Source: a virus
Taxonomy: Duplodnaviria; Heunggongvirae; Uroviricota; Caudoviricetes
Direction: 5' to 3' (one strand)
Length of the DNA: 37,747 bases
IMG/VR virus record: IMGVR_UViG_3300025012_000032
Position numbers and translations under genes: made by a program. Below, piece by piece: positions 3,935 through 37,747 of the stretch. How positions within the stretch are numbered: the first letter of the stretch is position 1; every line of letters begins with the position of its first letter. The notes under the pieces were generated by a model. The model was not told the DNA's origin. It searched no databases and saw nothing but the letters and a program-made list of their open reading frames with translations.

Positions 3935-3970
3935 GATAAGTTTGTCAGTTTAATTGGTTGTTGATATATT

Positions 3971-4031
<61 letters not shown>

Positions 4032-4058
4032 TAGTAGTGAGAGGAGGTGAGAAAATAA

Positions 4059-4238: not shown

Positions 4239-4262
4239 AATTGGGAGGACGAGTGATTTAAT

Positions 4263-4448: not shown

Positions 4449-4463
4449 AGGAGTCTAGACAAT

Positions 4464-4685
4464 ATGACAGCAACAAAAATGAAACCATATTGGATTACAT
4501 CTCCATGTACAGAATTTTATGAATGTGATCAAGATGACTTATCAACATTAAATTACATAGAGTACGATGAGGAATCTAGATTGAAAGAATTAGATTCACT
4601 TATATTGAATTGGCCTGAGAGAAATTTAATGCCATTGAGTAAACATAAAATGAGGATTATTAAGGGACTTGGAAGAAAGAAATAA
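4464..4685 (+). CDS. Hypothetical phage protein
   Basis: 73 aa ORF with AAAGGAG RBS. Confidence 0.6.
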   Translation: MTATKMKPYWITSPCTEFYECDQDDLSTLNYIEYDEESRLKELDSLILNWPERNLMPLSKHKMRIIKGLGRKK

Positions 4686-4767
4686 TATACATAATTAAGG
4701 TTGATTTGAGGTATATATGAGAGGATGTGGTGATATACATGATTGTAAAATATTTTTTTATTTATTA

Positions 4768-4797
4768 TTTGACTTGAGTTGTCAAAAGTAGTATACT
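4768..4797 (+). promoter_or_regulatory. Sigma-A promoter TTGACT-N17-TATACT with overlapping palindrome TTTGAC-N7-GTCAAA (candidate operator)
   Basis: -35 at 4769-4774, -10 at 4792-4797; inverted repeat 4768-4773/4781-4786. Confidence 0.7.
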
Positions 4798-4830
4798 TAT
4801 TAAGTAGGGTTATTTAGAGATAGAAAGGAA

Positions 4831-5034
4831 GTGAAAAATAATATGAAATTAGATTATGAACTAACTGATAGGCAATATTATTCAATTCTAAGGAAAATAA
4901 AAAATATTAAACTGAAAGAAATATCTGAAGTATTGGGGTGTACATTTGCGTTGATATCTTTATGGGAAACTGGCAAAGGGAACATGAATGAAGATTTTGT
5001 AAAAGTGTATAAGGAAATAATTGACAACAAGTAA
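4831..5034 (+). CDS. XRE/Cro-family helix-turn-helix regulator
   Basis: LRKIKNIKLKEISEVLGCTFALISLWETGK pattern. Confidence 0.85.
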   Translation: MKNNMKLDYELTDRQYYSILRKIKNIKLKEISEVLGCTFALISLWETGKGNMNEDFVKVYKEIIDNK

Positions 5035-5097
5035 ATTGGCATAACTACAATTACATAAATTAGTAGAGTAAAATAAAAATAAATAAAATAATAAAGG

Positions 5098-6060
5098 ATG
5101 GTAATGTATAATATGAGTAACGAATTAATGATTTTCGAAGGTCAAGAGATTGAGATTTTAACCAAGGAAGATGTAAATTTTGAGTTTAAGGGTACTGCAT
5201 TGTTTAATGGAAATCAGATTTCTAAGATGCTTGGATATTCAGAAAAGAGTAAGCCGATAACTAAACATGTAAGGGACAATCAAAAATATCTAGTCAAAAG
5301 TTCAGATGTGCTTGATCGGCACTTCCGAAAATTAAATAATGCAGGAGAAACATTTATAACTGAGCATGGAGTTATGAAATTGACAATTAACAGTGATATG
5401 GATGATGCTAATGCGTTTGAAGATATTGTATGGGACATCGTAACTCAAATTCAGCAAACAGGTAAATTCGATGCAACAGAGAACAATATCATGTTAATAG
5501 AAGATGAAACAGAAAGGAATATGACTCTCACAGTACATAATTTTAAACAGGCATTAATGATTAATCCAAATGATATGATTGCACAATTTGCTTATAATTC
5601 AAAAGTAACAGCCTTAGATTCATATAAACAATCAATGCAATTAAAATTAGTAGAAGGGAAAATAGAGGAATTATCCAATACAATAAATACTGTTCAAAAG
5701 GATAATGAATTAATCAAGGGGCAACAAATGTTTATATGTGACCGAACCAGCTTCTCACAGAAAATGACGCTACTCTCGAACAAATATTTTGGTAGAAACA
5801 TGTCAAAAGCGTATAATGCATTGTTTGGTAAAATGAAATTGCTAGGAAGTTTTGATGTTTATGCCAGAAGGAAGAATGAATGGGATAAGATTAATATTAA
5901 TAGAATTGAGCAAGGTAAAGATATTTATAAAGAAAGTACATTGAAAGGAAAAGTAAATTATTTGGATATTATTGATAAAAATGAGAAGTGGGGACTTTGC
6001 TCTGAGGCATATAAAGTAATTGAAACAGAGATGTATAATGGTGCTTTACATATGGCTTAA
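5098..6060 (+). CDS. BRO-N domain protein (phage antirepressor-like)
   Basis: FEGQEIEI...FNGNQISKMLGYS...FITEHGVMKLTINS...FEDIVWDIVTQIQQTG matches the BRO-N pattern. Confidence 0.8.
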   Translation: MVMYNMSNELMIFEGQEIEILTKEDVNFEFKGTALFNGNQISKMLGYSEKSKPITKHVRDNQKYLVKSSDVLDRHFRKLNNAGETFITEHGVMKLTINSDMDDANAFEDIVWDIVTQIQQTGKFDATENNIMLIEDETERNMTLTVHNFKQALMINPNDMIAQFAYNSKVTALDSYKQSMQLKLVEGKIEELSNTINTVQKDNELIKGQQMFICDRTSFSQKMTLLSNKYFGRNMSKAYNALFGKMKLLGSFDVYARRKNEWDKININRIEQGKDIYKESTLKGKVNYLDIIDKNEKWGLCSEAYKVIETEMYNGALHMA

Positions 6061-6100
6061 GGTTTAGTTATGATTAGGATATTGGATTTATAAAATAATT

Positions 6101-6145
6101 TATTTGTATTTATTTGTATTTATTTGTATTTATTTGTATTTATTT
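6101..6145. repeat. Tandem 10-bp repeat (TATTTGTATT)x4 plus partial copy
   Basis: Four perfect copies at 6101-6140. Confidence 0.9.
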
Positions 6146-6162
6146 AGTATGTGTGGTATACT
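6134..6162 (+). promoter_or_regulatory. Sigma-A-like promoter TTGTAT-N17-TATACT; the -35 lies in the last tandem repeat unit
   Basis: Hexamer spacing read directly from sequence. Confidence 0.55.
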
Positions 6163-6201
6163 TAGGTGTAAGATATTTATAGGTGAAGGGAGTTAAAAAA
6201 T

Positions 6202-6603
6202 ATGAATGAACTAAGAGGAATATTAATTACATACAAAAATGAAATAGCAAAAATAAAGTTTGACCGTGATCATAAAGATTTCTTTCAACATATTAAAAAT
6301 CACACAGGTGGAACTATGTTTGATATTGGTGATGTTGCTCCTGAGTTAAATAAAGCATATGGAAGATTGTGTTTTGCTGTAGATGATAATGGTATGAGGA
6401 ATCTAGGACTCAGTGCAAGGAATAATGTAGGGAGTTATATTTATGCTCATAAAGGACATATAGTAGGTAACATTATAGTATTCAGAGAAGATTTTTCTAA
6501 AGAAGGGGACTTGGATTTTGTTGATATGTCAGAGGATGAGCAAGACAGATTATATCATGATTTTAGAACTGCATTTAAAATGAAGGAGATAAAGGCAAAA
6601 TAA
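6202..6603 (+). CDS. DUF3846-like protein
   Basis: IKNHTGG..FDI...FAVDDNG.....IVGNIIVFR resembles DUF3846. Confidence 0.55.
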   Translation: MNELRGILITYKNEIAKIKFDRDHKDFFQHIKNHTGGTMFDIGDVAPELNKAYGRLCFAVDDNGMRNLGLSARNNVGSYIYAHKGHIVGNIIVFREDFSKEGDLDFVDMSEDEQDRLYHDFRTAFKMKEIKAK

Positions 6604-12075: not shown

Positions 12076-13257
12076 TTGAACAATGATTTTAATAAAGACT
12101 TGCCAATCCCCTCTTACCATGCGATGATTGAGCATGACAGCAAGGAGGAGTTCGGTCTGAAGATTGGAATAATAGATGCAGATTTATTAAGTAATAATAG
12201 TCATAGGTTTCCTAATTTAGCATTAATGAAAATTAGTGCATATCATAAATATAGAAGGTCTGATAAAGTTACTTTGCTAATGAACTATAATGATATAGAA
12301 AAATACGACATGGTTTACATTTCTAAAGTGTTTGATTATACAGACATCCCAATTGATATAATGAAATATGATAATCTATATTATGGAGGGACAGGATTTT
12401 ATTATGAACTTATGCCTGATCTCCCAGACTTTATGGAACATATGAAACCGGATTATATCTTATATCATAGTTGGATAGGTGATATGATGAGAAAAGGAGC
12501 AAAAAGAAAAGAATTTGAGTATTATCTAGACTACTCAATTGGATTTATGACTAGAGGTTGTTTTCGTAAGTGTGAGTTCTGTGTGAATAAGAAATACGAC
12601 AAGGTTCAATTACACTCCCCAATTAAAGAATTTTTAGATGAAGATAAACTATACATATGTTTATTGGATGATAACTTATTTGGTTATCCAAAATGGAAAA
12701 ATATTATAGAAGAGTTAGTTACCACTAAGAAATCGTTCCAATTCAAACAAGGATTAGATTTAAGGTTAATGACTGATGATAAAGCAAAAACAATGTCAGA
12801 AGTTAAATACAAAGGTGATTACATATTTGCATTTGATGATATTATGGATAGAGACTTGATAGAAGAAAAATTGACATTGTGGAGAAAATACAATACAAAA
12901 ACAACAAAACTTTATGTTTTAGTCGCCTATGGTAGTCAGGGTATTGGTGATATATATTCTATGTTTGAGAGAATAAAAATACTTATGAAGTATCAATGTT
13001 TACCATACATAATGAGGTATAAGGATTATAAAGATAGTGAATTTTATGGTACATATGTTAATGTAGCTAGATGGTGTAACCAACCATCACAATTTAAGAA
13101 AAGAAGTTACAGAGAGTGGTGTCAAGCCAATGTGGATGTTAATGGAGAGAACTGTTCTGCTAATAGATATATGAAGGATTTAGAATCAAAGTATCCAGAT
13201 GTTGCTGAGATGTATTATGATCTTAAATTTACTGATTTTGGAAATCTAGTAAAATAG
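12076..13257 (+). CDS. Radical SAM protein (phage family with N-terminal KIGIIDAD..FPNLALMK domain)
   Basis: GCFRKCEFC CxxxCxxC motif; LLDDN; QGLDLR. Confidence 0.85.
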   Translation: MNNDFNKDLPIPSYHAMIEHDSKEEFGLKIGIIDADLLSNNSHRFPNLALMKISAYHKYRRSDKVTLLMNYNDIEKYDMVYISKVFDYTDIPIDIMKYDNLYYGGTGFYYELMPDLPDFMEHMKPDYILYHSWIGDMMRKGAKRKEFEYYLDYSIGFMTRGCFRKCEFCVNKKYDKVQLHSPIKEFLDEDKLYICLLDDNLFGYPKWKNIIEELVTTKKSFQFKQGLDLRLMTDDKAKTMSEVKYKGDYIFAFDDIMDRDLIEEKLTLWRKYNTKTTKLYVLVAYGSQGIGDIYSMFERIKILMKYQCLPYIMRYKDYKDSEFYGTYVNVARWCNQPSQFKKRSYREWCQANVDVNGENCSANRYMKDLESKYPDVAEMYYDLKFTDFGNLVK

Positions 13258-14506: not shown

Positions 14507-15499
14507 TTGGAAAAGCTAAAAGTATTTGAAGGTTTTGCAGGATTGGGTGCGGTTAGTAAAGCAATGGAGAGATTAAATATATGCCATGAACTGGTTGGAT
14601 TTTCTGAAATAGATAAATATGCAATTAAGTCATTTGGTTTAATACATAATGTAAATGAAGAATTAAATAATGGTGATGTCTGTCTGATAGATGAGACAAA
14701 ACTTCCAGATTTTGATTTGTACACGTTCGGCAGCCCTTGTCAAGATTTTAGTGTGGCTGGCAAACAAAAAGGGGCAACGTGGACTTGCAAAGATTGTAAT
14801 TATGAATATAATCCACTAGATGTTCATTATAGTAAACGAGATTCTTGCCCTATTTGTAATAAGCATAATATAAATAAAACGAGATCGAGTTTAGTTGTTG
14901 AAGCACTAAGGATTATTAGACATAAGAAACCAAAGTATTTGCTTATGGAAAATGTTAAAGGTCTTATAGGTAAACAATTCAAACCTAGTTTTGATAAGAT
15001 AATAACTGAATTACAAGAGTATGGATATAATATATATTGGGATGTATTAAATGCAAAAGATTATGGAATTCCTCAAAATAGAGAACGAGTGATCGTCATT
15101 AGTATAAGGAAAGATATTGATAATAATTCATTTAAATTCCCTGAAGGATTTGATAATGGAATTAGATTAAGAGACCTATTAGAATATGAAGTTGATGAAA
15201 AATATTATATAAGTCAAGATAAGACTGAAAAATTACTTGAACAATTAAAAGATAAAGAATTCTCTAATACTATAAGAGCAGGAGGAAGAGGTTCTTTAGA
15301 TAGACATCAGTGGGATATGGTTTGTGTAAATACAAAAATGCAAGATTTACAAACTAGAGAAGATGGTTTATCTTGTACATTGACTGCTTCGATGTATAAA
15401 GAACCTTTAAAAGTAGTAGAAGTAAGACCATGTATAACTCCTGTGATTGCATGGGAAATTAAAGAGTGTTACGAGAAGTCAGGTTGGCCTTGGAGTTAA
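14507..15499 (+). CDS. dcm: DNA (cytosine-5) methyltransferase, C-terminally truncated (no motifs IX/X), with a Zn-ribbon insert
   Basis: FEGFAGLGA (I), GSPCQDFS (IV), ENVKG (VI), PQNRERV (VIII); ends VRPCITPVIAWEIKECYEKSGWPWS with no LTPRE or GNS motif. Confidence 0.85.
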   Translation: MEKLKVFEGFAGLGAVSKAMERLNICHELVGFSEIDKYAIKSFGLIHNVNEELNNGDVCLIDETKLPDFDLYTFGSPCQDFSVAGKQKGATWTCKDCNYEYNPLDVHYSKRDSCPICNKHNINKTRSSLVVEALRIIRHKKPKYLLMENVKGLIGKQFKPSFDKIITELQEYGYNIYWDVLNAKDYGIPQNRERVIVISIRKDIDNNSFKFPEGFDNGIRLRDLLEYEVDEKYYISQDKTEKLLEQLKDKEFSNTIRAGGRGSLDRHQWDMVCVNTKMQDLQTREDGLSCTLTASMYKEPLKVVEVRPCITPVIAWEIKECYEKSGWPWS

Positions 15500-21880: not shown

Positions 21881-22756
21881 TTGAATAAAGGAGTGATAAT
21901 TTTGAAATTGAAATGTAATTGTTGCGATGGAATTTATAATTCTCTTGATATTCATTTTACAAGTGCTTGTGATAATAATTGTTCACATTGTGTTGATAGA
22001 TGTTTTAATGGTTTAAATATTTCTAAACCAGATGTTGAAGCAATCGTTAATACAATTGTAAACAACCAAGAAGGGGTAGATGACGTATTATTTCTTGGAG
22101 GCGAACCATGTTTATATCTTGATGAATTAGTAGATTGTGTAACACAAATTAAACAGAAAACTTCATTAAAAGTATTTGTTACCACATCTGTTCCTAAAGT
22201 ATGTAAAACAGAATATGATAAGTTTTTAAGATTATTAGATTTGCTTGATGGAATAAATTTATCTGTTCAACATTATAAAGAAGATATTGCAGATAAAATA
22301 AGAAATACGATTTCTACATATGATAGGCAAGAATTTTATTCCTTGTTACCTCAAAAGGACAAAATACGAATAAATTTGAATATAGTAAAACCATATTTAT
22401 ATACTAAAGAAGATATAAGTGCATGTTTAAGACATTATGATTCTATGGGATTTAATTCTATAAAATTATCTGAAATACAACATGGGAAAGATGTATTTGT
22501 TTCTTTTGAAAAAGTATTTAGTATTAATTTAGGATCACCATATTCAGATGGATGTCAAACATATTTAAATATGAATAATATATTAGAAGGATTTAAGACT
22601 CCAGTTCTATTAAAAAGATCATGTTTCATGTGCGAAGATACTTTAAAAGTTTCTATTCATGATGGTATTAAAGTGGTTAGAAATTTGTTTAGGTTTGTCG
22701 AAAATAAGTATGGTGTAGTTTATGAAAATGGGTTATTAACGAAAGGATGGATATAA
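21881..22756 (+). CDS. Radical SAM protein A (extra Cys at both termini)
   Basis: CDNNCSHC (CxxxCxxC), FLGGEP, N-terminal CNCC, C-terminal CQT...SCFMC. Confidence 0.88.
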   Translation: MNKGVIILKLKCNCCDGIYNSLDIHFTSACDNNCSHCVDRCFNGLNISKPDVEAIVNTIVNNQEGVDDVLFLGGEPCLYLDELVDCVTQIKQKTSLKVFVTTSVPKVCKTEYDKFLRLLDLLDGINLSVQHYKEDIADKIRNTISTYDRQEFYSLLPQKDKIRINLNIVKPYLYTKEDISACLRHYDSMGFNSIKLSEIQHGKDVFVSFEKVFSINLGSPYSDGCQTYLNMNNILEGFKTPVLLKRSCFMCEDTLKVSIHDGIKVVRNLFRFVENKYGVVYENGLLTKGWI

Positions 22757-22757
22757 T

Positions 22758-22853
22758 ATGTATACAAAATTATTAAAAGTGGTAGTTAAATTACAAAGAA
22801 GACTGGCTGGACATTGTGGAGGTAGTTCTGGTGGTAGTGGGCATTGCTCATAA
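22758..22853 (+). CDS. 31-aa putative RiPP precursor MYTKLLKVVVKLQRRLAGHCGGSSGGSGHCS (not in ORF track)
   Basis: AAAGGA at 22742-22747, ATG at 22758, TAA at 22851-22853; lies between two radical SAM genes. Confidence 0.7.
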   Translation: MYTKLLKVVVKLQRRLAGHCGGSSGGSGHCS

Positions 22854-22902
22854 AATACTCAATTCATTTAGTAATAAAATAAAAAAATAAAGGAGAGATA
22901 AT

Positions 22903-24147
22903 ATGAAATTAGAAAATATAGGATTCTATACATTGAGTGACAATAGATGTAAAAGAACAAGTGTTGATTCTCAACTCATGAGATGTGAGCTAATATTGAC
23001 AGATGCTTGTAATTTTAAATGTCCATACTGTAGAGGTCTTAGGCCAGATTTAAAAGGTACAATGACACTAGAAAGAGCTAAATACATAATTGATTTATGG
23101 ACTAAAGATAATCTGAAAAATATTAGACTGTCTGGTGGAGAACCTACTGTTTGGAAAGACATTGTAGAATTAGTCAAATATATTAAATTCAAAGGCGTAG
23201 AACGTATTGCTATCTCTACTAATGGATATGCAGAAATAGATTTATATGAAAAACTAATCAAAGCAGGAGCAAATGATTTTTCAATATCCTTAGATGCTTG
23301 TTGTAGTGCTTTTGGTGATGCAATGGCAGGAGGAATTAATGGAGCGTGGGATAAGGTTATTTCTAATATTAAAGAAATATCTAAACTTACATATGTCACA
23401 GTTGGAGTTGTAGTTACTGAAGAAACTGTAAGTGATTTGAAAAACACAATTGAATTTGCTTCAAGTTTAGGTGTTGCAGATATTAGAATTATCTCTTCGG
23501 CACAATATAATCAATTGCTTGATGTTGCGAAAACAGTATCAAAAGATGTTTATGAAAAATATCCTATTCTTAAATATCGTATTGAAAATTTGAACAATCA
23601 AAGAAACGTCAGAGGATTACAAGAAACTGATTCACATAGATGTGGATTGGTTTTGGATGATATGGCAATTGCAGGAGATTATCATTTCCCATGTATCATT
23701 TATATGCGCGAGGGTGGAAATCCCGTAGGTAAAGTTGGAGAAAATATGAGACAAGAAAGATTAAAATGGATGAAAAATCATGATACTCATAAAGATCCTA
23801 TTTGTAAAAATAATTGTCTTGATGTTTGTATTGATTATAATAATAAATACAACAAATATAATATCGAGAAAACTAGATTGTGTAAAATTGATAGTTCTAA
23901 TTTTGATTGGTTGAAGTGGTCTGCTGGTAGTATTCATGATTTTGGAATTCCTTGTAGGTTTGATACTTTGACTCAAAACAATAGTAAGAAATTATTAGAG
24001 CAATATGCTATAGGATGGGCATATGGAGAAAGTATTGTTTGTAAACCAAAAGAAAAACATGTTGCAGTTATGTTCGAGAAAGATGATAATCAGTTTTGGT
24101 TTCATGTAAGAAATAGTGAATTTATGGAGATATTTTGTAATCAGTAA
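22903..24147 (+). CDS. Radical SAM protein B (MoaA/SPASM-twitch-like Cys cluster plus an extra C-terminal domain)
   Basis: CNFKCPYC, LSGGEPT, ISTNG, SISLD; C-terminal CGLVLDD...FPCIIY...CKNNCLDVC. Confidence 0.9.
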   Translation: MKLENIGFYTLSDNRCKRTSVDSQLMRCELILTDACNFKCPYCRGLRPDLKGTMTLERAKYIIDLWTKDNLKNIRLSGGEPTVWKDIVELVKYIKFKGVERIAISTNGYAEIDLYEKLIKAGANDFSISLDACCSAFGDAMAGGINGAWDKVISNIKEISKLTYVTVGVVVTEETVSDLKNTIEFASSLGVADIRIISSAQYNQLLDVAKTVSKDVYEKYPILKYRIENLNNQRNVRGLQETDSHRCGLVLDDMAIAGDYHFPCIIYMREGGNPVGKVGENMRQERLKWMKNHDTHKDPICKNNCLDVCIDYNNKYNKYNIEKTRLCKIDSSNFDWLKWSAGSIHDFGIPCRFDTLTQNNSKKLLEQYAIGWAYGESIVCKPKEKHVAVMFEKDDNQFWFHVRNSEFMEIFCNQ

Positions 24148-28927: not shown

Positions 28928-29641
28928 TTGATATTGAAATTACTAGGTGGTAGAGCAGGATACAATAGTGTAATGTTTGAATCAGAAACACATACTTCAA
29001 TAGCAATAAGAAAAGGTAATGATGTAGTAGTAGTAAACAAAAACATCAAGGATAATAAGGAGATAAAATTAGAGGAACTTATATATAAAATACCATTTGT
29101 AAGAGCGTATTGGATTATATTTAAGATTATATTTACAAAATTTGGTTTGTTATTATTGGCATTTAGTCTTATTTATTCTTATTGTTTGTACAATTTTGAA
29201 CCAAGCAGTCTACAAAACAGCAACTATCATAATTTTATTATATTGCCGATTTTAATGTTGTTGTTTAATAAATTCAGTAAAACGAAATATTATCATGGAG
29301 CAGAACATAAGGTAGTAAATGATTACGAGAAAAATGGAAAAGTAAAAATAGAAACGTCAATAAATCAAAGTTGTGTAAACGATGATTGTGGAACTAATTT
29401 ATGGGTAGGATTAATGATAATTTCTGGATTATTGGTTACATTCTTTCATTCTGGAGCAATGTTATTAGGATGGGGTATTACATATGAAGCAATGAGATCA
29501 GATAATAGGGTTGTAATGTGGATTGTTAAACCGATTTATTTTGTAGGAAGTTTATTGCAGAAATATGTTTTTACTAGTGAACCAAGTATAGAGCAATTAG
29601 AGGTTGCTGTGAGGGCATTTAAGGGGTTGGAGGAGGAATAA
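28928..29641 (+). CDS. DUF1385 (YqhQ-like) membrane protein
   Basis: GG.AG.N.V...IPFVRAY...YHGAEHKVVN...CGTN...QKYVFTSEP...LEVA. Confidence 0.85.
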   Translation: MILKLLGGRAGYNSVMFESETHTSIAIRKGNDVVVVNKNIKDNKEIKLEELIYKIPFVRAYWIIFKIIFTKFGLLLLAFSLIYSYCLYNFEPSSLQNSNYHNFIILPILMLLFNKFSKTKYYHGAEHKVVNDYEKNGKVKIETSINQSCVNDDCGTNLWVGLMIISGLLVTFFHSGAMLLGWGITYEAMRSDNRVVMWIVKPIYFVGSLLQKYVFTSEPSIEQLEVAVRAFKGLEEE

Positions 29642-29644
29642 TAA

Positions 29645-30037
29645 ATGTTAGGAAAGTATCTTAAAGACCTTGGTATAAAAGAGGATAATACTCCTCAAGG
29701 GTGGAATAAAGATGATTCAAGACAAGAACGATGGATTAAAGAAAGAGAAATATATGGTTTTGATGAAAAAGAAACTTGGTCAATGGATTTTACATTTAAG
29801 CTATGGTTGTATGAAAGATTGTCTATGTATAATGAAGTAAATGGTATTGACACATCTTTTCATAAATACGAGTTTAAAGGTGAGACAATTACGTTTCAAG
29901 AATGTATTGATAGGATGCTGGATGGGTTGAAGATTGAGTTGACTGTTGACGAATATAGAAGGACTGAAGAGCAGAAAGAAAAAGTAGAAGATATAGTAAA
30001 TATATTTGCTTTGTGTTTGCCTAGTTTGTGGTGGTAG
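29645..30037 (+). CDS. Conserved phage hypothetical protein
   Basis: YGFDEKETWSMD...FALCLPSLWW. Confidence 0.7.
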   Translation: MLGKYLKDLGIKEDNTPQGWNKDDSRQERWIKEREIYGFDEKETWSMDFTFKLWLYERLSMYNEVNGIDTSFHKYEFKGETITFQECIDRMLDGLKIELTVDEYRRTEEQKEKVEDIVNIFALCLPSLWW

Positions 30038-30160
30038 GTGATTGGAATATAAGGGATGTGACTCGGAATGTAAAAATAAATATTTAATTATATGAATAGG
30101 ACAAAATGAAATTGTCTATAATATAATCACAAGGAAATAAAAAAGGAGTGTGATTATATT

Positions 30161-30559
30161 ATGCAAAATGTAATAAATAAAGTTCAGCATGAGATTAAAA
30201 GAGGTGATATTTTTCTAGCAAATCTAGGTGAAGGAATAGGTTCTATCCAAGGTGGTTTTATGCGTCCGATGATTGTGGTAGCGAATACAATGTGCTGTAA
30301 GTATTCTAGTGTAATTCATGCGGTGCCAACGACAACAAAATCCAAAAAGTATATCCCTACGCATGTAGAAATTTCAATCAATACTGGATTAAGGATAGTT
30401 TCTATAGCTCTTTGTGAACAAGTACAACTGTTAAATCGAGCTATGTTCATAGAAAAAATCGGACATTGCGATAATTACATAATGGATAAGATTTCAAATG
30501 CATTGAGAATACAGTTTGATATTGGTGAGATTAAAAATAATGTTGCTTATGCAAATTAA
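30161..30559 (+). CDS. PemK/MazF-family protein
   Basis: IKRGDIFLANL...GSIQGG.RPMIVVAN...AVPTTT...THVEI...SIALCEQVQ. Confidence 0.88.
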   Translation: MQNVINKVQHEIKRGDIFLANLGEGIGSIQGGFMRPMIVVANTMCCKYSSVIHAVPTTTKSKKYIPTHVEISINTGLRIVSIALCEQVQLLNRAMFIEKIGHCDNYIMDKISNALRIQFDIGEIKNNVAYAN

Positions 30560-30581
30560 GAAGGAGAGATATAATTAGATA

Positions 30582-32183
30582 TTGGCTATAAGAAAAACAA
30601 CAGAACAATATAAATTAGAATTAGAAGAAGTAAATAAAATTAACAACACCAATATAAAATTAAAAGAGGGGATTGAGTATGAAGGTGCATTAACAAAAAT
30701 ATGGCATATCTGCTCTTGTGGTAAAGATTGGTTTTCTACACCTAGTAGTATAATATCTTTAAAATCCAAATCATGTGGTTTATGTTGTTCCTTTGCAGAA
30801 AAAGGAATTAATGATTTGGGAGAAGATTTTTTAGAAAAATATTGGGATTATAAAACAAATGATGAATTAGGGATTGATCCGTGGAAAATAAGTCATAGAT
30901 CAGAAAAAGATGTGTATATATTTTGTAAAAAAGTAGATTATCATGGTAGTTATAAAGTGCGATGTGCTGATTTTAGCACAGGGAGTAGGTGTGGTTATTG
31001 TCAAGGATACTATTTAGTACATCCACTAGATAGTTATGGTCAGTTTTTAATAGACTCATTTGGAATTACAGCGTTAGAATTGTATTGGGATTATGATGAA
31101 AATATAATTGATCCTTTTAAAATTACAAAGCAGTCAAATAAAAAGGTATATATAAAATGTCAAGTAAAAGAATATCATGGGAGTTATGGGGTAAGATGTG
31201 GAGATTTTGTAAAAGGGGATAGATGTGGATATTGTGGAGGTAAAAAAGTACATCCATTAGATAGTCTAGGGACATTATATCAAGAAGTATTAGGAATATG
31301 GTCTGATATAAATAAAAAGTCTCCTTATGAATATATGTCTGGAAGCGACGAAGAAGTTTGGTTTAAATGTGGTAATAAGAAGCATGAAGATTACCAAAAG
31401 AGAATATATAACGCAGTAAATTGTAATTTTAAATGTCCAACATGTTCACAAGAACAAAAAGAATCTGTTATGGCATCCACATTAAAACAAGTGTTGAGAT
31501 GGGAATACAGTCATACAGAATGGGAATTCGATGCAGGATTTAAAATACATAATAATATAAGCAGATATGATATATATGTTCCAGAATTGAACAACTTATT
31601 AATAGAATGTCAAAGTGAATACCATGATAATGACAAACGAATTAAAGTAGATCAACTTAAAAAAGAATTTGCTATTAATAATGAATATGAATATATAGCA
31701 ATAGATAAAAGAGATTTTACTATAATAGAAATATTGAGATTTTTTATACCGCATATAGATAAAATCCCAGATTATGTACAGATAGACAAAAATACTACAA
31801 GAAATTGGGATATAGAAAAAGCTCAAAAACTACTCGATAGTGGTCATACATATGCAGATATAGCTAATATATTAGAAACTTCAGTTACATCAATACGTGC
31901 CAGTGTAGGTGGCAATTGGTTAATTAAACCAAATAATTATCAAGTACAAGGTGCAAATATTGCTTGTTTATCTATGGATAATAGTTTAATAAAAACATAT
32001 AATTCTGTTACATCTGCTGCCAAGGATTTAGGAAAGGCAAATGGAACAAGTATTAGTTCTTGTTTAACCAAAAAACCTCGTTCTGATACAGGTAAAATAC
32101 GTGAGGCAGCCTTTGGATTTAAGTGGATGTATCTAGAAGATTATGAGAATATGATTAAAGATCAAAATAATAAACCTCCGTAG
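30582..32183 (+). CDS. Free-standing homing-endonuclease-like protein: zinc-ribbon (DUF4379-like) repeats, PD-(D/E)xK nuclease, NUMOD1-like tail
   Basis: Repeated C..H..Y...C.YC units; RYDIYVPELNNLLIECQSEYH; TYNSVTSAAKDLG...AFGFKW. Confidence 0.72.
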   Translation: MAIRKTTEQYKLELEEVNKINNTNIKLKEGIEYEGALTKIWHICSCGKDWFSTPSSIISLKSKSCGLCCSFAEKGINDLGEDFLEKYWDYKTNDELGIDPWKISHRSEKDVYIFCKKVDYHGSYKVRCADFSTGSRCGYCQGYYLVHPLDSYGQFLIDSFGITALELYWDYDENIIDPFKITKQSNKKVYIKCQVKEYHGSYGVRCGDFVKGDRCGYCGGKKVHPLDSLGTLYQEVLGIWSDINKKSPYEYMSGSDEEVWFKCGNKKHEDYQKRIYNAVNCNFKCPTCSQEQKESVMASTLKQVLRWEYSHTEWEFDAGFKIHNNISRYDIYVPELNNLLIECQSEYHDNDKRIKVDQLKKEFAINNEYEYIAIDKRDFTIIEILRFFIPHIDKIPDYVQIDKNTTRNWDIEKAQKLLDSGHTYADIANILETSVTSIRASVGGNWLIKPNNYQVQGANIACLSMDNSLIKTYNSVTSAAKDLGKANGTSISSCLTKKPRSDTGKIREAAFGFKWMYLEDYENMIKDQNNKPP

Positions 32184-32252
32184 AATACATAATTATTAAT
32201 AAATACATAGACTAAAAATAAATTACAATAGTAAAGGAGAGATACAAAATAA

Positions 32253-32951
32253 ATGGATTTAATTACACTAGCAACAAAAACAACATATAAATTGCTTAAA
32301 GTAGATAATATAATTGATTTGTTTGATCAAAATGATTTCAATAAAGTTAAGAAAGTAGTAAAAAAATATAGGAATATGGATATTGAGGCAACAAAATCTC
32401 AAGTACAACAATTAGCCGAAAATGGAATTAGAAATTTTTGGAGCGAAGTGTTCAAATATATAATTGTATTGTCAATTGCAAGTTATTTTAATATATTTAC
32501 CCCTACTTTCTTTGTAATGAATGCCTTCTCTGCCCTCAGAGCATTGGCTGGAGGAGTACATATGTCAACCATAGGAAAATGCTTTGCAATGATGGTTCTA
32601 TTCTTCTTATCACTAGGATATCTAATTAGCATATTACATATAAATACGTTAATATTAGTAGTAGGAATATCATTTGGATCTATGTGGAACGTATATATAG
32701 CAAAAAAATATTCACCACAAGAAAGACCAGATAAATCAGATAAAGATTGTGACCGTGGTAATATAAAGAAGTATAAGACAATAAAGTTTATTAAATTCTC
32801 ATATATAATTAGTATGATATTAATATTGTTTACTCAAAAATACATAATTGGAATTAGTATATTTGCAGGTGTTTTACTTGAGATGGTAACAATTACACCT
32901 ATGGGAACGAGAGTTTTCCAATGGATAGATGGTAAGAAGGTGATTATGTGA
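32253..32951 (+). CDS. agrB: AgrB-family autoinducing-peptide maturation protein
   Basis: LRALAGGVHMST.GKC (AgrB R..GG.H...C catalytic signature), multi-TM, YSPQ. Confidence 0.85.
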   Translation: MDLITLATKTTYKLLKVDNIIDLFDQNDFNKVKKVVKKYRNMDIEATKSQVQQLAENGIRNFWSEVFKYIIVLSIASYFNIFTPTFFVMNAFSALRALAGGVHMSTIGKCFAMMVLFFLSLGYLISILHINTLILVVGISFGSMWNVYIAKKYSPQERPDKSDKDCDRGNIKKYKTIKFIKFSYIISMILILFTQKYIIGISIFAGVLLEMVTITPMGTRVFQWIDGKKVIM

Positions 32952-33574
32952 TCGAAGTAGTAGTGTTTACGTTCATTTTTGCGTGGTTCAAGGGATATAG
33001 ATGGAAGGTATTAAATTTGTTTAAGCATTGGAGTATATATCCTATTGCATTTACTTGTTTATTGCATATCTACATTATCTATTTGATGATGCATGGAGAA
33101 TATTGGTTTATGGAATATGCCAAATACATAAAAATTGTATCTATATTATTTTATTTAGGTTTGATTTGTAAATATAAACTATTCGACATATCTATCTTTA
33201 AGAAAATTAATATTAAAGAGAACACTATATTAACCCATTTTACATCTCCTGTTTCTTTAGGTGTGTTATGTATGGGTATAGGATCTGTCTTAAATGTTAT
33301 CGCTATGAAATTTAACGATTCAAAAATGCCTGTTTTTGCAAGTGTAAGTTTCGGTACAGGATATTCAAAAATAGATATGTTTGATAAAATGTTACAATAC
33401 AAAGATTTCCATATATTTGGAAGTAATAATACTAATCTAATATTTTTGACCGATTACATAGATGTTTTTATATCTATTATGAGCATAGGAGACCTACTTA
33501 ATAGAGTTTTTGTTGTTTTGGTAATATATTACTCAATAAAAGTATGTTATCATAAATTAATAAATAATATTTAG
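32948..33574 (+). CDS. DUF5317-like membrane protein
   Basis: G..LN.IA.KFN..KMPV and TNLIFLTDYI...SIGDLL pattern; ATGTGA-type overlap with agrB. Confidence 0.65.
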   Translation: MIEVVVFTFIFAWFKGYRWKVLNLFKHWSIYPIAFTCLLHIYIIYLMMHGEYWFMEYAKYIKIVSILFYLGLICKYKLFDISIFKKINIKENTILTHFTSPVSLGVLCMGIGSVLNVIAMKFNDSKMPVFASVSFGTGYSKIDMFDKMLQYKDFHIFGSNNTNLIFLTDYIDVFISIMSIGDLLNRVFVVLVIYYSIKVCYHKLINNI

Positions 33575-33603
33575 TTGACAAGCGATGAAAGGAGGTGTAT
33601 ACT
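33575..33603 (+). promoter_or_regulatory. Sigma-A promoter TTGACA-N17-TATACT (TG adjacent)
   Basis: Near-consensus hexamers at 33575-33580 and 33598-33603. Confidence 0.75.
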
Positions 33604-33636
33604 TATCACATAGCAAAGAAAAGTTTAGAGGAGTAG

Positions 33637-34437
33637 ATGATTATGTTGGAAAATATTATTCATGGTGCATTAAGTTGTATTTGTATCACAATTCCAGAAT
33701 TTATGTTTATGATAATTGTTACATTAAAACTAATGAAAAGAAAAGAACTGTTGGATTTATATAATATAAAAAACAATACTATATCAATTTTAAAAGTAGT
33801 GATTCCTTCAGCATTTTTATTAGACATTCTAAATTATATTATCAAAACACCTCCAACCATAAATAAAACAATATCATTTATTACTTTATACATATTTTTA
33901 ATTATTGTACTAAGTACAAAAGAACATTCATATGTTGAGTATTCAAAATTGAAAGAAAAAGCCTTTAAATATTTTACAAAAAGCATATTACTTGCAATAG
34001 CAATTGAATCAATAACTTATCCAATTATTTTACAATTAACTAATAAAAATTATGAGGAAATTAAATTGAACTTCTATTTAGTTATTATATGTTCATTAGC
34101 ATCAAGGATAATAAACATTGTAATAATTTGTTATATTCTTATAAAAAAGAATGACAAATTTCAAATGGACTTAGGCGATTATATATTAAATAACAAATTT
34201 TTTATGAGATCAACGTCTGGAATAACCATAGGATTACTACTATATGAGATATATTTTGTAAAACTAATAATTTACAATAATTTATTATCTGTCATTGGTA
34301 ATATATACGAACAGTTGTTTATAGTAATAGGTTCTACCTTTTTAATTCCTGCGTTAATAACCACATTAGTTTATTCTTATATAAATTATTGTGTTATGCT
34401 TAATAGATGTGAGAAGCAGACTGTCAGAGATGACTGA
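33637..34437 (+). CDS. Multi-TM membrane protein, AgrC-sensor-like, without a kinase domain (paralog 1)
   Basis: About 6-7 hydrophobic segments, no H-box or ATPase domain; aligns by eye with 35678..36469. Confidence 0.6.
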   Translation: MIMLENIIHGALSCICITIPEFMFMIIVTLKLMKRKELLDLYNIKNNTISILKVVIPSAFLLDILNYIIKTPPTINKTISFITLYIFLIIVLSTKEHSYVEYSKLKEKAFKYFTKSILLAIAIESITYPIILQLTNKNYEEIKLNFYLVIICSLASRIINIVIICYILIKKNDKFQMDLGDYILNNKFFMRSTSGITIGLLLYEIYFVKLIIYNNLLSVIGNIYEQLFIVIGSTFLIPALITTLVYSYINYCVMLNRCEKQTVRDD

Positions 34438-34476
34438 TCTGATTTTTCAAATATATTATAAAAGGAGGTGAAAACA

Positions 34477-34584
34477 ATGAAAAAGAATATCGTAATTGGT
34501 TTTGTGGCAATCGCCGCTTTTGCAGCAGTAATGTCCTCTGCTATCATTTGGAATCAATCAGAAACCCCTAATTGTATCGCTTAG
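34477..34584 (+). CDS. agrD: AgrD-like cyclic autoinducer propeptide, 35 aa (not in ORF track)
   Basis: AAAGGAGGTG RBS; MKKNIVIGFVAIAAFAAVMSSAIIWNQSETPNCIA*: amphipathic leader, S-x-x-x-W core and Q-x-E-x-P tail as in AgrD; linked to agrB. Confidence 0.75.
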   Translation: MKKNIVIGFVAIAAFAAVMSSAIIWNQSETPNCIA

Positions 34585-34599
34585 TACATACCCAATTTT

Positions 34600-34628
34600 A
34601 AGGAGGGAGTTTTATACTCTCTCCTTTT
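34600..34628 (+). terminator. Intrinsic terminator after agrD
   Basis: AAGGAGGGAGT-tttat-ACTCTCTCCTT followed by further T residues. Confidence 0.7.
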
Positions 34629-34656
34629 GAATTATAAAATAATTTATAAATACCTA

Positions 34657-34685
34657 TTGACATACTAACATCATTGCTGTATCAT
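34657..34685 (+). promoter_or_regulatory. Sigma-A promoter TTGACA-N17-TATCAT for the HTH-MazF gene
   Basis: Hexamers at 34657-34662 and 34680-34685. Confidence 0.7.
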
Positions 34686-34740
34686 TGTAAATATAAAGTA
34701 TGTATTCAGAAAATTTATATTTACAATTTATGAAGGGTGG

Positions 34741-35568
34741 ATGATTAATATGTTTGGATTAAGAAAGAAGAGTGAATTAGTCAAATCAAATGAGGTAAAG
34801 GATTTTAAAAAACTCGCTAATTTGGTAAAGATTGCTGTCGGATGTAATACGGTTTCAGAATTTGCAGGGAGAAATGGAATACCAAATTCGGCTAAAACCA
34901 TAGCTAACATTATGCATGAAAAAATAACTACATACCCAGAACTTTGGCTTCTTAAAAAAATTGCTTTAGGTTCAGAATTTAGAGTCTCATTTAATGATTT
35001 AAGAATCGCGTGCGGTTATAATTTAAACGATACAGGAGTTGATCTAAGAAGTGTAAGTGCAATGAGAGGGTGGATCGCATTATGTGATTATGGAATTGTT
35101 GCAGGGAGTGAGCAATCGGGAGTTAGGCCGTCCCTAATAATTTCCAATAATGTCGGAAATTGTCGAGGTACTATTTTAATGGCAATCCCTTTATCTAGTA
35201 AAATAATGAAAAATACTATGCCGACCCACGTAAGAATATCTCCTCAAGAATGCGGATTAGCTCAGGAATCTGAAATTTTAGTTGAGCAAATGCGAGTGGT
35301 ATCAAAAAGTCGGTTGATGATTGATGGTTATATCCAACCAATTTGTGAATGTCCCGAAGATGTTCTTCGTAAGGTGGAAATCGCAATCATGATAGAAACT
35401 GGCATGGTTCACACAAAGGCTAAAGAATCTACTGTAGATAGATTCTTAAACAAACTTAATGAGTACGTAAACAAAGAGGAAGAGAGTCGTCTTGCTCATA
35501 TCAGAAGTGATAACTTTAATAATAACTTTAATACACCATTATCACAGCAACAAAGGGTAGCATATTAG
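34741..35568 (+). CDS. N-terminal HTH-like domain fused to a PemK/MazF domain
   Basis: C-half RGWIALCDYG...GSEQSGVRPSLIISNN.GN...AIPLSS...THV...SEILVEQMRVVSKSRL; N-half XRE-like (VSEFAGRNG...TIANI...LKKIA...LRIACGY). Confidence 0.75.
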   Translation: MINMFGLRKKSELVKSNEVKDFKKLANLVKIAVGCNTVSEFAGRNGIPNSAKTIANIMHEKITTYPELWLLKKIALGSEFRVSFNDLRIACGYNLNDTGVDLRSVSAMRGWIALCDYGIVAGSEQSGVRPSLIISNNVGNCRGTILMAIPLSSKIMKNTMPTHVRISPQECGLAQESEILVEQMRVVSKSRLMIDGYIQPICECPEDVLRKVEIAIMIETGMVHTKAKESTVDRFLNKLNEYVNKEEESRLAHIRSDNFNNNFNTPLSQQQRVAY

Positions 35569-35583
35569 AATGAAAATAAAATT

Positions 35584-35642
35584 GATGGTCATTATATAAA
35601 TTCATAAATATTTATCACACAATGATTTTATAATGACCATCT
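35584..35642. other. 13-bp perfect inverted repeat with a 33-bp spacer
   Basis: GATGGTCATTATA (35584-35596) / TATAATGACCATC (35630-35642). Confidence 0.75.
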
Positions 35643-35677
35643 CTACAATCAAAATAAAATAAAAAGGAGTAACTAAC

Positions 35678-36469
35678 ATGCAAACACTATCCCTACCCCA
35701 CATCATCCTAAACATAATATTCACATCGCTCCCAGAAGAAGGATTCGTCGCAATAATAACACTAATCTTCCTAAAACTAAATAACCTCCTAGACATTTAT
35801 ACATGGAATAGAAGTCTAAAATGGATTGCTCTAGCTGTATTACCAGTATCTATCCTTATAAACATCTTCAAATACATAATTCTTGTTCCAAAGCAAAATA
35901 TGATGATATCAACCATGATTCTAATGATACTACTTATGGAATTTATAGTCCTAAACAACAGTTTCAATATAACTATCTCCCTAATACTAAAAACAGCAAT
36001 TTACACAATCGCAGGATTTGTCATTGTAGGACTAGTAGAATTATCATATTGTCCATTTATATTATCAATAGTTGATAAACCAATATCATTCTTCAATGAC
36101 AATGTTTTCTATAATTTTCTATTAGGTATCCCTGCGAGAGTATTATATTTATGTGTAATTTCGTTTGTTGTAATGAGAAGAAATAATTCAGTTCATGTTG
36201 ATTTATTTAGAGCAGTATTTAAAAACAAATTCTTTGTATTTAGTTTTATAACAATTGTATTGGCTAGAATTTCTGCAATTGCATATGTTGTAAAACTAGT
36301 AAACAATAATCATATTCTAATTAATCTACAAATTATGGATCAATTAATCATTATGGTTGTAACAATGTCTATTCCAGTAATATTGGTTACTTGGTTTTTG
36401 ATGTTTGTTAATAATTTATTGTGTAAAGAGCAGATGAAGTTTCAGACTTATGAGAATATGATTAATTAA
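35678..36469 (+). CDS. Multi-TM membrane protein, AgrC-sensor-like, without a kinase domain (paralog 2)
   Basis: Shares PE..F..I.TL..K...LLD.Y, YII..P, DL......NKFF and QL.I with 33637..34437. Confidence 0.6.
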   Translation: MQTLSLPHIILNIIFTSLPEEGFVAIITLIFLKLNNLLDIYTWNRSLKWIALAVLPVSILINIFKYIILVPKQNMMISTMILMILLMEFIVLNNSFNITISLILKTAIYTIAGFVIVGLVELSYCPFILSIVDKPISFFNDNVFYNFLLGIPARVLYLCVISFVVMRRNNSVHVDLFRAVFKNKFFVFSFITIVLARISAIAYVVKLVNNNHILINLQIMDQLIIMVVTMSIPVILVTWFLMFVNNLLCKEQMKFQTYENMIN

Positions 36470-36507
36470 GGTGGAAAGGTGATAATCAAGTGTATAAAAT
36501 AAATTAT

Positions 36508-36596
36508 TTGACATTGTGCAATCAATAATGTTATAATAATAAATATAAAAGTAATCAAGCATCTTCTTGACGTATCGGCATATTATATATTATAAT
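36508..36596 (+). promoter_or_regulatory. Two tandem sigma-A-like promoters (TTGACA-N18-TATAAT with TGn; TTGACG-N18-TATAAT)
   Basis: 36508-36537 and 36567-36596. Confidence 0.6.
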
Positions 36597-36669
36597 AGCA
36601 TTGCGTATTATTAACCAATACATAGCAACATAACTTGTTGCTGATATGTCAAAAGGAGGAATAAATATT

Positions 36670-37747
36670 ATGAAACAAGATCGTCAAATTCTTGAGGATA
36701 TTCTTAATTTAGTCATTGAAGATTATGCTAATGACAATCAAATTCAAGAGCAGGTTGTAGGTAAATTATTAGAACGAGGTATACCGAGGGGCAGAACTAC
36801 AGGTATATTCACTAAAGCAATTCCATTGGTTTATGTTGAAGAAATTGAGTTGTGTTTATTCACAAAGTATCTCTATGGGTATACTCATCGAATAGAAATA
36901 AATCCAGATGAGTTTTTTACAGAGATTGAATTGTCTTCTTCAGAATCATATCAAAAGTTAGAAAAAGAAAAGGCTAAATATATTTTGTTACACAATGTTG
37001 ATCAAATAGGTGATAATCAATGGTTATGTACAATGGAAACATATCAGAATATCGGTGTTTATATGGGAAATGGATTATTGACTTATAACCCCAACACTCA
37101 AAGACAACTTCTTAAAAGGAGAAGTGGAAGCAGAATTGTCGAATCTATTAATATTGATAGTGAAAAGGTATTAGAAATAGCTACGTCAATGTTAGATAAT
37201 AGTTTCTGTCCAAATGCAATTATTTGGAATATTCGTAAAATAAATGGACAAAAACAAAAATATCACTATGATTCTAAAGCTAGAACATTGTTAATTGAAC
37301 CAGATAATGTGTCTACTTTGGTGGACATAATTGACGGAGCAAACAGAACTTGTGGTATGCTTAAAACAGTAGAAACTAAGCCTGAGATTAATAGAGTAAC
37401 ATCTATATATATTCATCATGTCACAGAGGAACGTGCCAATCAAATAATTCGTCAAGAAAGTTTGGCTGCTCCCATTGAAAAAGAATGGGTAAACTATAAA
37501 AACACCGCTAACCCAAATATGGAAGTAGCAAAAGCTATAAACAGTCACCAAAGCAAGAATGATATGTTTAATCGCATAGCCTTTAACGAAAAAGAATTAA
37601 AAGTTGAAAACAAATTAATGACATTTGACACTCTATCAAAAACAATTGAGTTTATTTATGATCTTAAAGAAGAACCAGCTATTAGAACAGAAGAAGTTGA
37701 GAATGATATTATTGAAATATTTAATAATGTCATTGGTCTCTATCATT
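36670..37747 (+). CDS. DGQHR/DndB-like (ParB-fold) protein, SPbeta YopQ-like; runs off the window (not in ORF track)
   Basis: AAAGGAGG RBS; MKQDRQILEDIL...FCPNAIIWNIR...LVDIIDGANRTCG, a variant of the IDGxHR motif. Confidence 0.65.
   Translation, partial: MKQDRQILEDILNLVIEDYANDNQIQEQVVGKLLERGIPRGRTTGIFTKAIPLVYVEEIELCLFTKYLYGYTHRIEINPDEFFTEIELSSSESYQKLEKEKAKYILLHNVDQIGDNQWLCTMETYQNIGVYMGNGLLTYNPNTQRQLLKRRSGSRIVESINIDSEKVLEIATSMLDNSFCPNAIIWNIRKINGQKQKYHYDSKARTLLIEPDNVSTLVDIIDGANRTCGMLKTVETKPEINRVTSIYIHHVTEERANQIIRQESLAAPIEKEWVNYKNTANPNMEVAKAINSHQSKNDMFNRIAFNEKELKVENKLMTFDTLSKTIEFIYDLKEEPAIRTEEVENDIIEIFNNVIGLYH

Follow-up and report, generated by a model that had tools for sequence, protein, structure and literature searches.

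A putative phage-borne Agr-type peptide communication module at the arbitrium position of Clostridia-type, SPbeta-like phages

How could a phage respond to a quorum-sensing peptide of its own making if it carries neither the histidine kinase nor the response regulator through which such peptides act in canonical agr systems? The question is raised by a locus in the IMG/VR virus record IMGVR_UViG_3300025012_000032 (Caudoviricetes), analyzed here as a stretch of 37,747 nucleotides that we call the window. A first-pass annotation had described, between positions 32253 and 36469, an Agr-like cassette made up of agrB, an overlapping DUF5317-like gene, a multi-transmembrane protein (TM1), a 35-aa AgrD-like open reading frame (ORF) with its own terminator, two promoters, a helix-turn-helix (HTH)-PemK/MazF fusion and a second multi-transmembrane protein (TM2). 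Every one of these elements is present on the + strand, as are all substantial ORFs across 30161-37747, and the phage that carries them is large and SPbeta-like, with a host of low GC content and Clostridia type. We put the probability at roughly 0.5 that the cassette is a phage-borne Agr-type peptide communication module located at the arbitrium position of Clostridia-type, SPbeta-like phages.

Arbitrium is, to our knowledge, the only known form of phage-phage peptide communication, with a range limited to phages of the Bacillus group. Neither agr genes in a phage (phiCDHM1) nor peptide communication between phages (arbitrium) is new in itself; the novelty here lies in (i) the combination of agr genes with the arbitrium address, (ii) an unnamed family of seven-helix (7TM) Agr partner proteins, together with a bacterial operon that contains it, and (iii) the HTH-MazF fusion.

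The peptide-making genes

The agrB gene (32253..32951; this and all features given below are on the + strand) encodes a membrane cysteine peptidase/cyclase of the type that processes AgrD (PF04647, E 4.7e-24). The R..GG.H...C motif claimed for it is indeed there, as L95-R96..A99-G100-G101-x-H103..C110 (H103 and C110 with spacing i+7), and is invariant in the 19 AgrB sequences aligned, six from phages and 13 from bacteria, leaving in place the catalytic His and Cys that mark the AgrB of an Agr system. The proposed AgrD lies at 34477..34584, with AGGAGG as a ribosome-binding site 7 nt upstream. The Pfam and NCBIfam AgrD models gave no match on this 35-aa sequence; it aligns column for column with 21 bacterial AgrDs. 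Alignment of the peptides of seven phages with these 21 is unambiguous, a Ser or Cys standing exactly five residues before [HNY]Q[PS]xxP, and it reveals the hydrophobic leader, the Cys/Ser five residues before the cleavage site and the proline-containing follower of an AgrD. The ring position is held by Ser in the window peptide, in 3/21 bacterial AgrDs and in five of the six other phage AgrDs, the peptide of relative L056 being the only phage one with Cys. For the window the predicted ring is S21-A-I-I-W25, followed by N-Q-S-E-T-P. The seven phage lineages have six distinct rings (SAIIW, SMVVW, SAFLW, SFFAW, CTFVW and SMFFT), each set between conserved leader and follower segments, and this combination of Ser/Cys interchange with a hypervariable ring is the pattern expected of autoinducing-peptide (AIP) specificity groups. 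The alignment thus gives strong support to the view that the 35-aa gene is a genuine AgrD with, beside it, an AgrB whose His/Cys dyad is intact; their predicted product should be a cyclic lactone of five residues, Ser-Ala-Ile-Ile-Trp, which may carry a short tail.

Directly after agrB, in all the relatives read except L011 (where it follows an HNH-type gene), comes the gene for a DUF5317 membrane protein (32948..33574; PF17248, E 7e-12, 46 bits against a gathering cut-off of 25). It overlaps agrB by 4 nt, as had been noted, and judging from this overlap it is translationally coupled to agrB. Its conserved residues are N116, N123, MP, TGY, D153-x-H155, D172 and S-x-GD. The D-x-H and S-x-G-D motifs gave rise to the idea of a GxGD-type aspartyl peptidase, which was dropped after an hhalign comparison with 12 A24 prepilin peptidases returned 0.1%. 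DUF5317 was mentioned nowhere in the literature searched; the protein may assist in maturing or exporting the peptide.

With the agr systems of Staphylococcus aureus (agrBDCA), Clostridium perfringens and Ruminiclostridium cellulolyticum the cassette shares the AgrB catalytic His/Cys and, in AgrD, the amphipathic leader, the five-residue ring closed through Cys/Ser, the Q-P-x-x-P-type follower and the hypervariability of the ring. It differs from them in being carried by a phage, in lacking the AgrC kinase and the AgrA LytTR regulator, in having a seven-helix protein of 260 aa that lacks both H-box and ATPase, a gene for DUF5317 and two MazF-type genes, and in its gene order, B-DUF5317-TM-D instead of B-D-C-A. 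The parallel that had been drawn with the Clostridioides difficile phage phiCDHM1 stands at the level of a phage with agr genes, the agr3 locus of that phage also having agrB and agrD without a response regulator. It does not extend further: phiCDHM1 encodes a 445-453-aa AgrC with a HATPase_c domain (PMC3901668), the window AgrB has no tblastn match in it, and its agr genes look like a recent host acquisition and come without DUF5317, a 7TM partner or MazF genes.

A small secreted peptide encoded beside fast-evolving polytopic membrane proteins of variable copy number might also be an antimicrobial, bacteriocin-like, with the paralogous multi-pass proteins conferring immunity. We regard this as very improbable, since the peptide has every AgrD hallmark and adjoins AgrB, its bacterial counterparts are ordinary clostridial AgrDs, a type shown to act as signals in Ruminiclostridium (PMC8251862), and domain scans of the cassette found neither a bacteriocin transporter nor a lantibiotic-type enzyme.

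A conserved cassette at the arbitrium address

If these genes form a module, they should keep company in other genomes. Megablast and tblastn searches with the cassette and AgrB against 50,697 GenBank phages returned no match; relatives came from metagenomic contigs of up to 277 kb, on which 19 TM1 homologues with 51-62% identity were found. Eight further loci were read (L001, L002-L004/L006, L005, L011, L056 and L057/L058), of which L005 and L011 are partial or rearranged. The order short MazF-AgrB-DUF5317-TM1-AgrD-fusion-(TM2)-YopQ-like-MrpR-like is common to the window, L001, L002-L004/L006, L056 and L057/L058, and the co-occurrence that the first-pass annotation had proposed to look for is therefore borne out: at least seven lineages of large phages, all uncultured, have kept the cassette together as a unit. 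TM2 is optional, being absent in L001, L056 and L057. The short, stand-alone MazF/PemK gene (30161..30559; 132 aa; PF02452, E 7.6e-20; phrog_1936, MazF-like, E 9e-23), which had been left out of the earlier description, belongs to the conserved cassette and heads it in all seven fully read relatives (L001-L004, L011, L056 and L057). In the window an HNH/DUF4379/NUMOD1 homing-endonuclease gene (30582..32183), outside the core cassette, lies between it and agrB; this gene is missing from L001, L056 and L057, in which the PemK and AgrB genes are direct neighbours.

Between the window and L002, its close relative, protein identity is 90% for AgrB, 87% for DUF5317, 86% for AgrD and 83% for the fusion, and falls to 40% in the short MazF and 23% in YopQ. 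Given such mosaic flanks, the conserved order does not merely reflect recent common descent of the whole block. The dN/dS values of six cassette genes in this comparison (0.09-0.31) indicate purifying selection and hence real genes.

The regulatory signals have been kept as well. The promoter-like site of TM1-agrD (33575..33603, TTGACA-17-TATACT, 11/12) retains its -35 GTTGACAA in the window, L001, L002 and L056 and partly in L057 (5/6 phage sequences aligned), and that of the fusion gene and TM2 (34657..34685, TTGACA-17-TATCAT) has a -35 region, TATTGACAT, invariant across seven phages, so that both promoters described earlier find backing in the relatives. The same applies to the terminator claimed for agrD, a hairpin at 34594..34633 (-17.8 kcal/mol, z -3.55) whose stem is maintained by compensatory changes among seven phages; the strict terminator scan did not report it because its T tail is short. 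An Rfam scan of 29500-37747 matched no family. On the basis of the conserved promoters and terminator, four transcription units can be inferred, which look like (short MazF)-agrB-DUF5317, TM1-agrD, fusion(-TM2) and the YopQ-like gene onward. A perfect 14-nt inverted repeat, ATTGTAAATATAAA ... TTTATATTTACAAT, begins at the -10 box of the fusion promoter (34684..34727); it is partially conserved among relatives and could be an operator or a hairpin in the 5' untranslated region. A second inverted repeat of 16 nt (35584-35641, 94% complementary, 26-nt loop) lies between the fusion stop and the TM2 start and could likewise be a hairpin or an operator.

Downstream of TM2 lies a YopQ/SroE-like gene of the DndB family (36646..37747; phrog_5732, E 1.5e-50), which the window end cuts. 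Its L002 orthologue is 24% identical to SPbeta yopQ over 80% of the length (E 5e-16), and the next gene in the relatives combines MrpR_N_CB and MrpR_C_cat domains (YopR/MrpR family), the succession of a DndB-family and an MrpR-domain gene recurring in each locus long enough to include it. SPbeta has the order aimR(yopK)-aimP(yopL)-terminator-aimX(yopM)-yopN-yopO-yopP-yopQ-yopR, and its YopQ/SroE and YopR/MrpR genes are lysogeny repressors. This order, together with the YopQ homology, argues that the Agr-type cassette, directly upstream of yopQ-yopR (sroE-sroF), occupies the position of arbitrium in SPbeta and phi3T. The likeness extends to the layout, in which a terminator separates the gene of a small secreted peptide from the effector gene after it, and to a link with MazF: in phi3T, arbitrium acts through MazF, AimX and YosL bind and inhibit the host MazF, and MazF activity favours lysogeny (PMC10769878). 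The two systems are unrelated in sequence. The arbitrium peptide is a linear hexapeptide imported by Opp, whereas here an AgrB-cyclised (thio)lactone is predicted; the arbitrium receptor AimR is a cytoplasmic tetratricopeptide-repeat (TPR) protein, whereas the candidate here is a membrane protein; and phi3T uses the host MazF, whereas here the phage encodes MazF proteins of its own, one of them as an HTH fusion. No ORF of the AimR type is present in the cassette, and the SPbeta AimR used as a query found no match in a 180-kb relative, which as a single-protein query is a weak test.

The YopQ-like gene itself occurs as two strongly different alleles. The window copy shares 56-57% identity with its counterparts in L056 and L057 and 23% with those in L001 and L002 (window 36646-37747, L002 9498-10865, L056 and L057), opposite to the relatedness of the cassette upstream, which indicates recombination at the cassette boundary. 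In addition, an exact 18-nt direct repeat, TTATGAGAATATGATTAA, is found at 32141-32158 and 36448-36465, the 3' ends of the HNH and TM2 ORFs, where both copies encode Y-E-N-M-I, and a 19-nt repeat (89% identity) follows downstream of each copy, at 32192 and 36607; these repeats, which bracket the block from agrB to TM2, may be a recombination scar.

The effector gene at this address is the fusion (34741..35568; 275 aa; translation probably begins at the ATG at 34750). The claim of an HTH-PemK/MazF fusion was upheld, by sequence for the MazF part (PF02452, PemK_toxin, E 4e-21, residues 109-217) and by predicted fold for the N-terminus. The AlphaFold2 (AF2) model (mean predicted local distance difference test, pLDDT, 79) shows a five-helix N-terminal domain (HTH, residues ~13-99), a MazF RNase domain (107-222) and a long, conserved C-terminal helix (229-261). 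The MazF domain superposes on the Bacillus subtilis and S. aureus enzymes with a TM-score of 0.9 at 32-35% identity. The N-terminal domain has no Pfam match, and for this reason the evidence on it is at the level of the fold: VIA-align matched model residues 13-99 to 2ofy, an XRE regulator (Z 9.0, 77 residues aligned, root-mean-square deviation 3.2), the other fold matches in that range (C.AhdI, SinR, ImmR, the 434 and P22 c2 repressors and HipB) are all of Cro/C1 type, and its Atlas feature neighbours are all HTH_3/HTH_26 (0.82-0.86). By this model-based evidence it qualifies as an XRE/Cro-C1 HTH with a five-helix, HTH_3-type fold.

The fusion and the short MazF, whose MazF domains are 30% identical, both retain the catalytic Arg and Thr/Ser of the PemK fold. 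Compared with MazF/EndoA of B. subtilis and MazF of S. aureus, which are type II toxins (PDB 4MDX, 1NE8 and 4MZM), the window copy has the same fold and retains the catalytic positions G-x-R-P and P-L-S/T-S, whereas the cassette has no MazE gene, the fused XRE-type HTH and the C-terminal helix of 50 residues are additions, and a quarter of the fusion homologues have replaced the catalytic Arg by His. A cognate antitoxin gene was not found upstream of either: the neighbours of the short MazF vary between phages and have no antitoxin-like domain, and the fusion is preceded by agrD. The acidic, conserved C-terminal helix or the HTH might serve the fusion as an antitoxin in cis. Homologues with His for the catalytic Arg also share W-G-G instead of R-G-W at the domain start, which points to two functional subtypes of the fusion, to go by their sequences. 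Two candidate relatives of the HTH were rejected, SPbeta YopO (hhalign 0.1%) and a divergent XRE regulator found beside bacterial agr genes (hhalign 1.4%), neither being significant by BLASTP.

Are these MazF genes coupled to the peptide at all? They could have nothing to do with it, forming a module for toxicity, anti-defence or superinfection exclusion that has only a hotspot for accessory genes in common with the agr genes. Phages often carry MazF-like genes as morons (phrog_1936), a homing endonuclease sits in this mosaic region, and the fusion has a promoter of its own behind a terminator. This we judge distinctly unlikely, because the order short MazF-agrB...agrD-fusion is kept in every lineage read while the flanks swap distant alleles. 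Besides, the family numbers 42 close relatives of ~260-272 aa, all 41 close homologues of the fusion have the same architecture, and those whose contigs were read, the longest of 84-175 kb, lie inside the cassette; a search of 399 sampled Clostridia genomes for the N-terminal domain found none, the one weak match being an unrelated XRE repressor. Locus L011 (JGI 3300001041, 200-6552), from a divergent phage, reads short MazF-HNH-DUF5317-TM-AgrD(SMFFT)-fusion-AgrB-TM-fusion; with two TM-then-fusion pairs for a single agrB and agrD, it suggests that TM plus fusion is a repeating unit.

The seven-helix membrane proteins

If the peptide is sensed by the phage, the candidates for doing so are TM1 (33637..34437; 266 aa; real start probably 33643) and, as the first-pass annotation had recognized, its paralogue TM2 (35678..36469; 263 aa; 26% identity, E 7e-17), members of a family that always accompanies agrD. 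TM1 has no Pfam match. Its AF2 model (pLDDT 80) has seven long helices, for which the positive-inside rule would place the N-terminus outside and the C-terminus inside. An exhaustive profile search gathered 177 representative clusters, the full-length members among the matches listed being ~240-326 aa long and none of kinase length; the matches of a second search, of 5.8 billion proteins, were all unannotated and without Pfam domains, and no description of the family was found in the literature searched. Its invariant residues are P-E in helix 1, further Glu, Asn and Lys residues and prolines, with no conserved His, Ser or Cys. The family was also considered as a CPBP/Abi protease, which was rejected on inspection, the EExxxR, FxxxH and HxxxN motifs and a conserved His all being lacking.

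The longer members (285-326 aa) that could be traced to assembled genomes are bacterial. In all 21 bacterial loci examined (L012-L032, including Ruminiclostridium cellobioparum, R. hungatei, Peptococcaceae and metagenome-assembled Clostridia genomes) a canonical clostridial agrD lies within a few tens of bases 3' of the 7TM gene; agrB is directly upstream in 13/21, a divergent XRE regulator of 110-141 aa stands just downstream of agrD in at least 13 of the 21, and no AgrC-type kinase was found within 6 kb of the 7TM gene in any. Examples of the agrB-7TM-agrD operon are L017 (6001-7103) and L020 (5318-7599). This layout, agrB-7TM-agrD plus a divergent XRE gene without adjacent kinase or response regulator, is an undescribed variant of the Agr operon. 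The phage cassette shares with it the 7TM gene directly upstream of agrD, the absence of an adjacent kinase or response regulator and an XRE-type DNA-binding protein as the nearest regulator. It differs in that the bacterial operon lacks MazF and also DUF5317, which was not found in the four genomes searched, in that the bacterial XRE is a separate protein not detectably related to the fusion HTH, and in that the bacterial 7TM proteins carry a cytoplasmic helical tail of ~60 residues, like the distal half of a dimerization and histidine phosphotransfer (DHp) domain, whereas the phage proteins stop a few residues past the last helix.

A link to sensor kinases comes from hhalign. The bacterial 7TM branch matched a set of 11 HATPase_c_5 kinases, taken from four of the same bacterial genomes, with 92% probability (P 6e-7, score 57.5), in a colinear alignment that spans the membrane domain, reaches the distal DHp helix and leaves the H-box in a gap; the controls scored 30-31 (reversed alignments), 10-16 (column shuffles), 15 (AgrB) and 16-18 (DUF5317).

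The statement that the locus has neither a kinase nor a response regulator stood up within the range searched. Domain scans found no kinase domain in the cassette ORFs, and the scanned ORFs of the window yielded neither a histidine kinase nor a response regulator. The 180-kb relative is an IMG/VR viral genome (180,838 bp, 85% complete according to CheckV) with one AgrB gene and two PemK genes, in which no domain of the types HATPase_c_5, HATPase_c, LytTR or Response_reg was found. About 6 kb downstream of the L056 cassette (14599-14783) there is a gene with a cREC_REC receiver-like domain (PF20274), of which no counterpart was found in the 180-kb relative with PF00072.

How the peptide may be read

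Taken together, these observations suggest the following model for a communication module at the arbitrium address. AgrB, probably aided by DUF5317, would convert AgrD into a secreted cyclic pentapeptide, the step with the strongest support from the sequences. The peptide would report the density of infected or lysogenic cells and would be bound at the membrane by TM1, joined by TM2 in phages that have it. As there is no kinase, the signal might then be passed on to the HTH-MazF fusion, the short MazF or both through contact between proteins or through sequestration instead of phosphotransfer, and RNA cleavage and/or DNA binding by these proteins could bias expression of the YopQ/YopR-type repressor module and thereby the choice between lysis and lysogeny. 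The proposed parallel is phi3T, where arbitrium controls host MazF via AimX and MazF favours lysogeny; this published role, together with the conserved gene order and the position of the cassette, is what makes the fusion a candidate output. Co-folding of TM1 with the fusion scored 0.00 in runs without controls and weighs neither way on binding.

A receptor should change with its ligand, and the comparison with L002 can be read in this light. DNA identity is 84-95% from agrB across DUF5317 to the promoter of TM1, falls to 59-74% in the TM1 body alone (33654-34353) and returns to 86-87% through agrD, whose differences include ring residues (AII versus MVV). In protein identity TM1 and TM2 reach only 62% and 53%, and dN/dS is 0.20 for TM1 and 0.31 for TM2, against 0.12 for AgrB and 0.09 for the fusion. 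A membrane protein and a peptide ring that change together, AgrB remaining the same, is on sequence grounds what is expected of a ligand-receptor pair.

Several observations weigh against reading the cassette as a communication module with a receptor of its own. First, dS is also higher in TM1 (1.26, against 0.39 in AgrB), and for this reason exchange of an old allele explains the TM1 divergence island as well as ligand-driven selection does; nor was any excess of variability found on the predicted outer face of TM1 relative to the inner face (p = 0.48). Second, the kinase searches cover the scanned window ORFs and the 180-kb relative, and a kinase may be encoded elsewhere in the phage's own genome. 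Third, the catalytic Arg of the MazF domain (G-G-x-R-P) is His in six of the 24 fusion homologues compared. Fourth, the kinase ancestry of the 7TM family comes from one profile comparison with a small kinase set; the hhalign probability falls to 50% with the best kinase subgroup, and the phage branch alone reaches 3%. Fifth, fold searches with TM1 (Foldseek against the PDB, AFDB clusters and AFDB Swiss-Prot; VIA-align wide) found no AgrC-like or other convincing match: the only good one was an uncharacterised 288-aa protein (TM-score 0.72), DUF2232, MreD, an ECF S-component and a 'histidine kinase N-terminal 7TM' protein gave weak partial folds (0.41-0.43), the Swiss-Prot matches were G-protein-coupled receptor noise, and all PDB matches had Z <8. 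The earlier description of TM1 and TM2 as sensor-only receptors is thus backed by the profile link of the bacterial branch and not by the phage branch or the fold searches. That the family is an AgrC sensor without H-box and ATPase is a moderately supported hypothesis, graded in this way because the signal weakens with kinase subgroups, is absent for the phage branch and gains no help from the fold searches. Finally, the genomes with the bacterial 7TM operon hold two to eight AgrC-type (HATPase_c_5) kinases elsewhere.

These last kinases could be the receptors, and the main rival to our reading is that the phage only makes the peptide: TM1, TM2 and DUF5317 would serve maturation, export or self-protection, a host AgrC/AgrA pair would do the sensing and MazF would act independently, so that the phage manipulates or joins host quorum sensing, as proposed for phiCDHM1. 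The bacterial 7TM gene does lie inside a biosynthetic operon, between agrB and agrD, the phage TM proteins have no visible output domain, and maturation of staphylococcal AIPs is known to need extra membrane proteases besides AgrB. We nevertheless consider this rather unlikely. The TM family has neither conserved His, Ser or Cys nor any protease-like motif, and the profiles connect it with a kinase sensor and the remnant of a DHp domain rather than with a transporter or peptidase. The presence of two diverged paralogues in one phage, with a TM divergence that tracks the ring change at 90% AgrB identity, fits a specificity partner better than a generic exporter, and the TM1-agrD unit has its own conserved promoter, apart from agrB-DUF5317.

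Elsewhere in the window there are phage-type anti-repressor, primase, methyltransferase and radical-SAM genes, the three radical-SAM genes (phrog_9298, phrog_1802 and phrog_13987) lying in the accessory region 12076-13257 and 21881-24147.

The reading of the cassette as a communication module thus has consequences beyond this phage, as it may represent a second kind of phage communication switch. Its boldest form would be a mechanistically distinct system in which a cyclic peptide, a kinase-less relic of AgrC and contact with an HTH-MazF protein decide between lysis and lysogeny, with the same 7TM plus XRE logic amounting, in Ruminiclostridium and its relatives, to an unrecognised branch of Agr signalling that works without phosphorylation; this is a tentative proposal, about which we are more doubtful than confident. 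If true, unrelated parts at the same address, beside the same repressor genes and with the same RNase family, would mean that phage communication has evolved more than once and that control over lysogeny turns repeatedly on MazF. For the bacteria, the 7TM family provides a concrete candidate for sensing at the 'orphan' clostridial agrBD loci that lack an adjacent agrCA, a long-standing question, and one that could be approached in culturable Ruminiclostridium.

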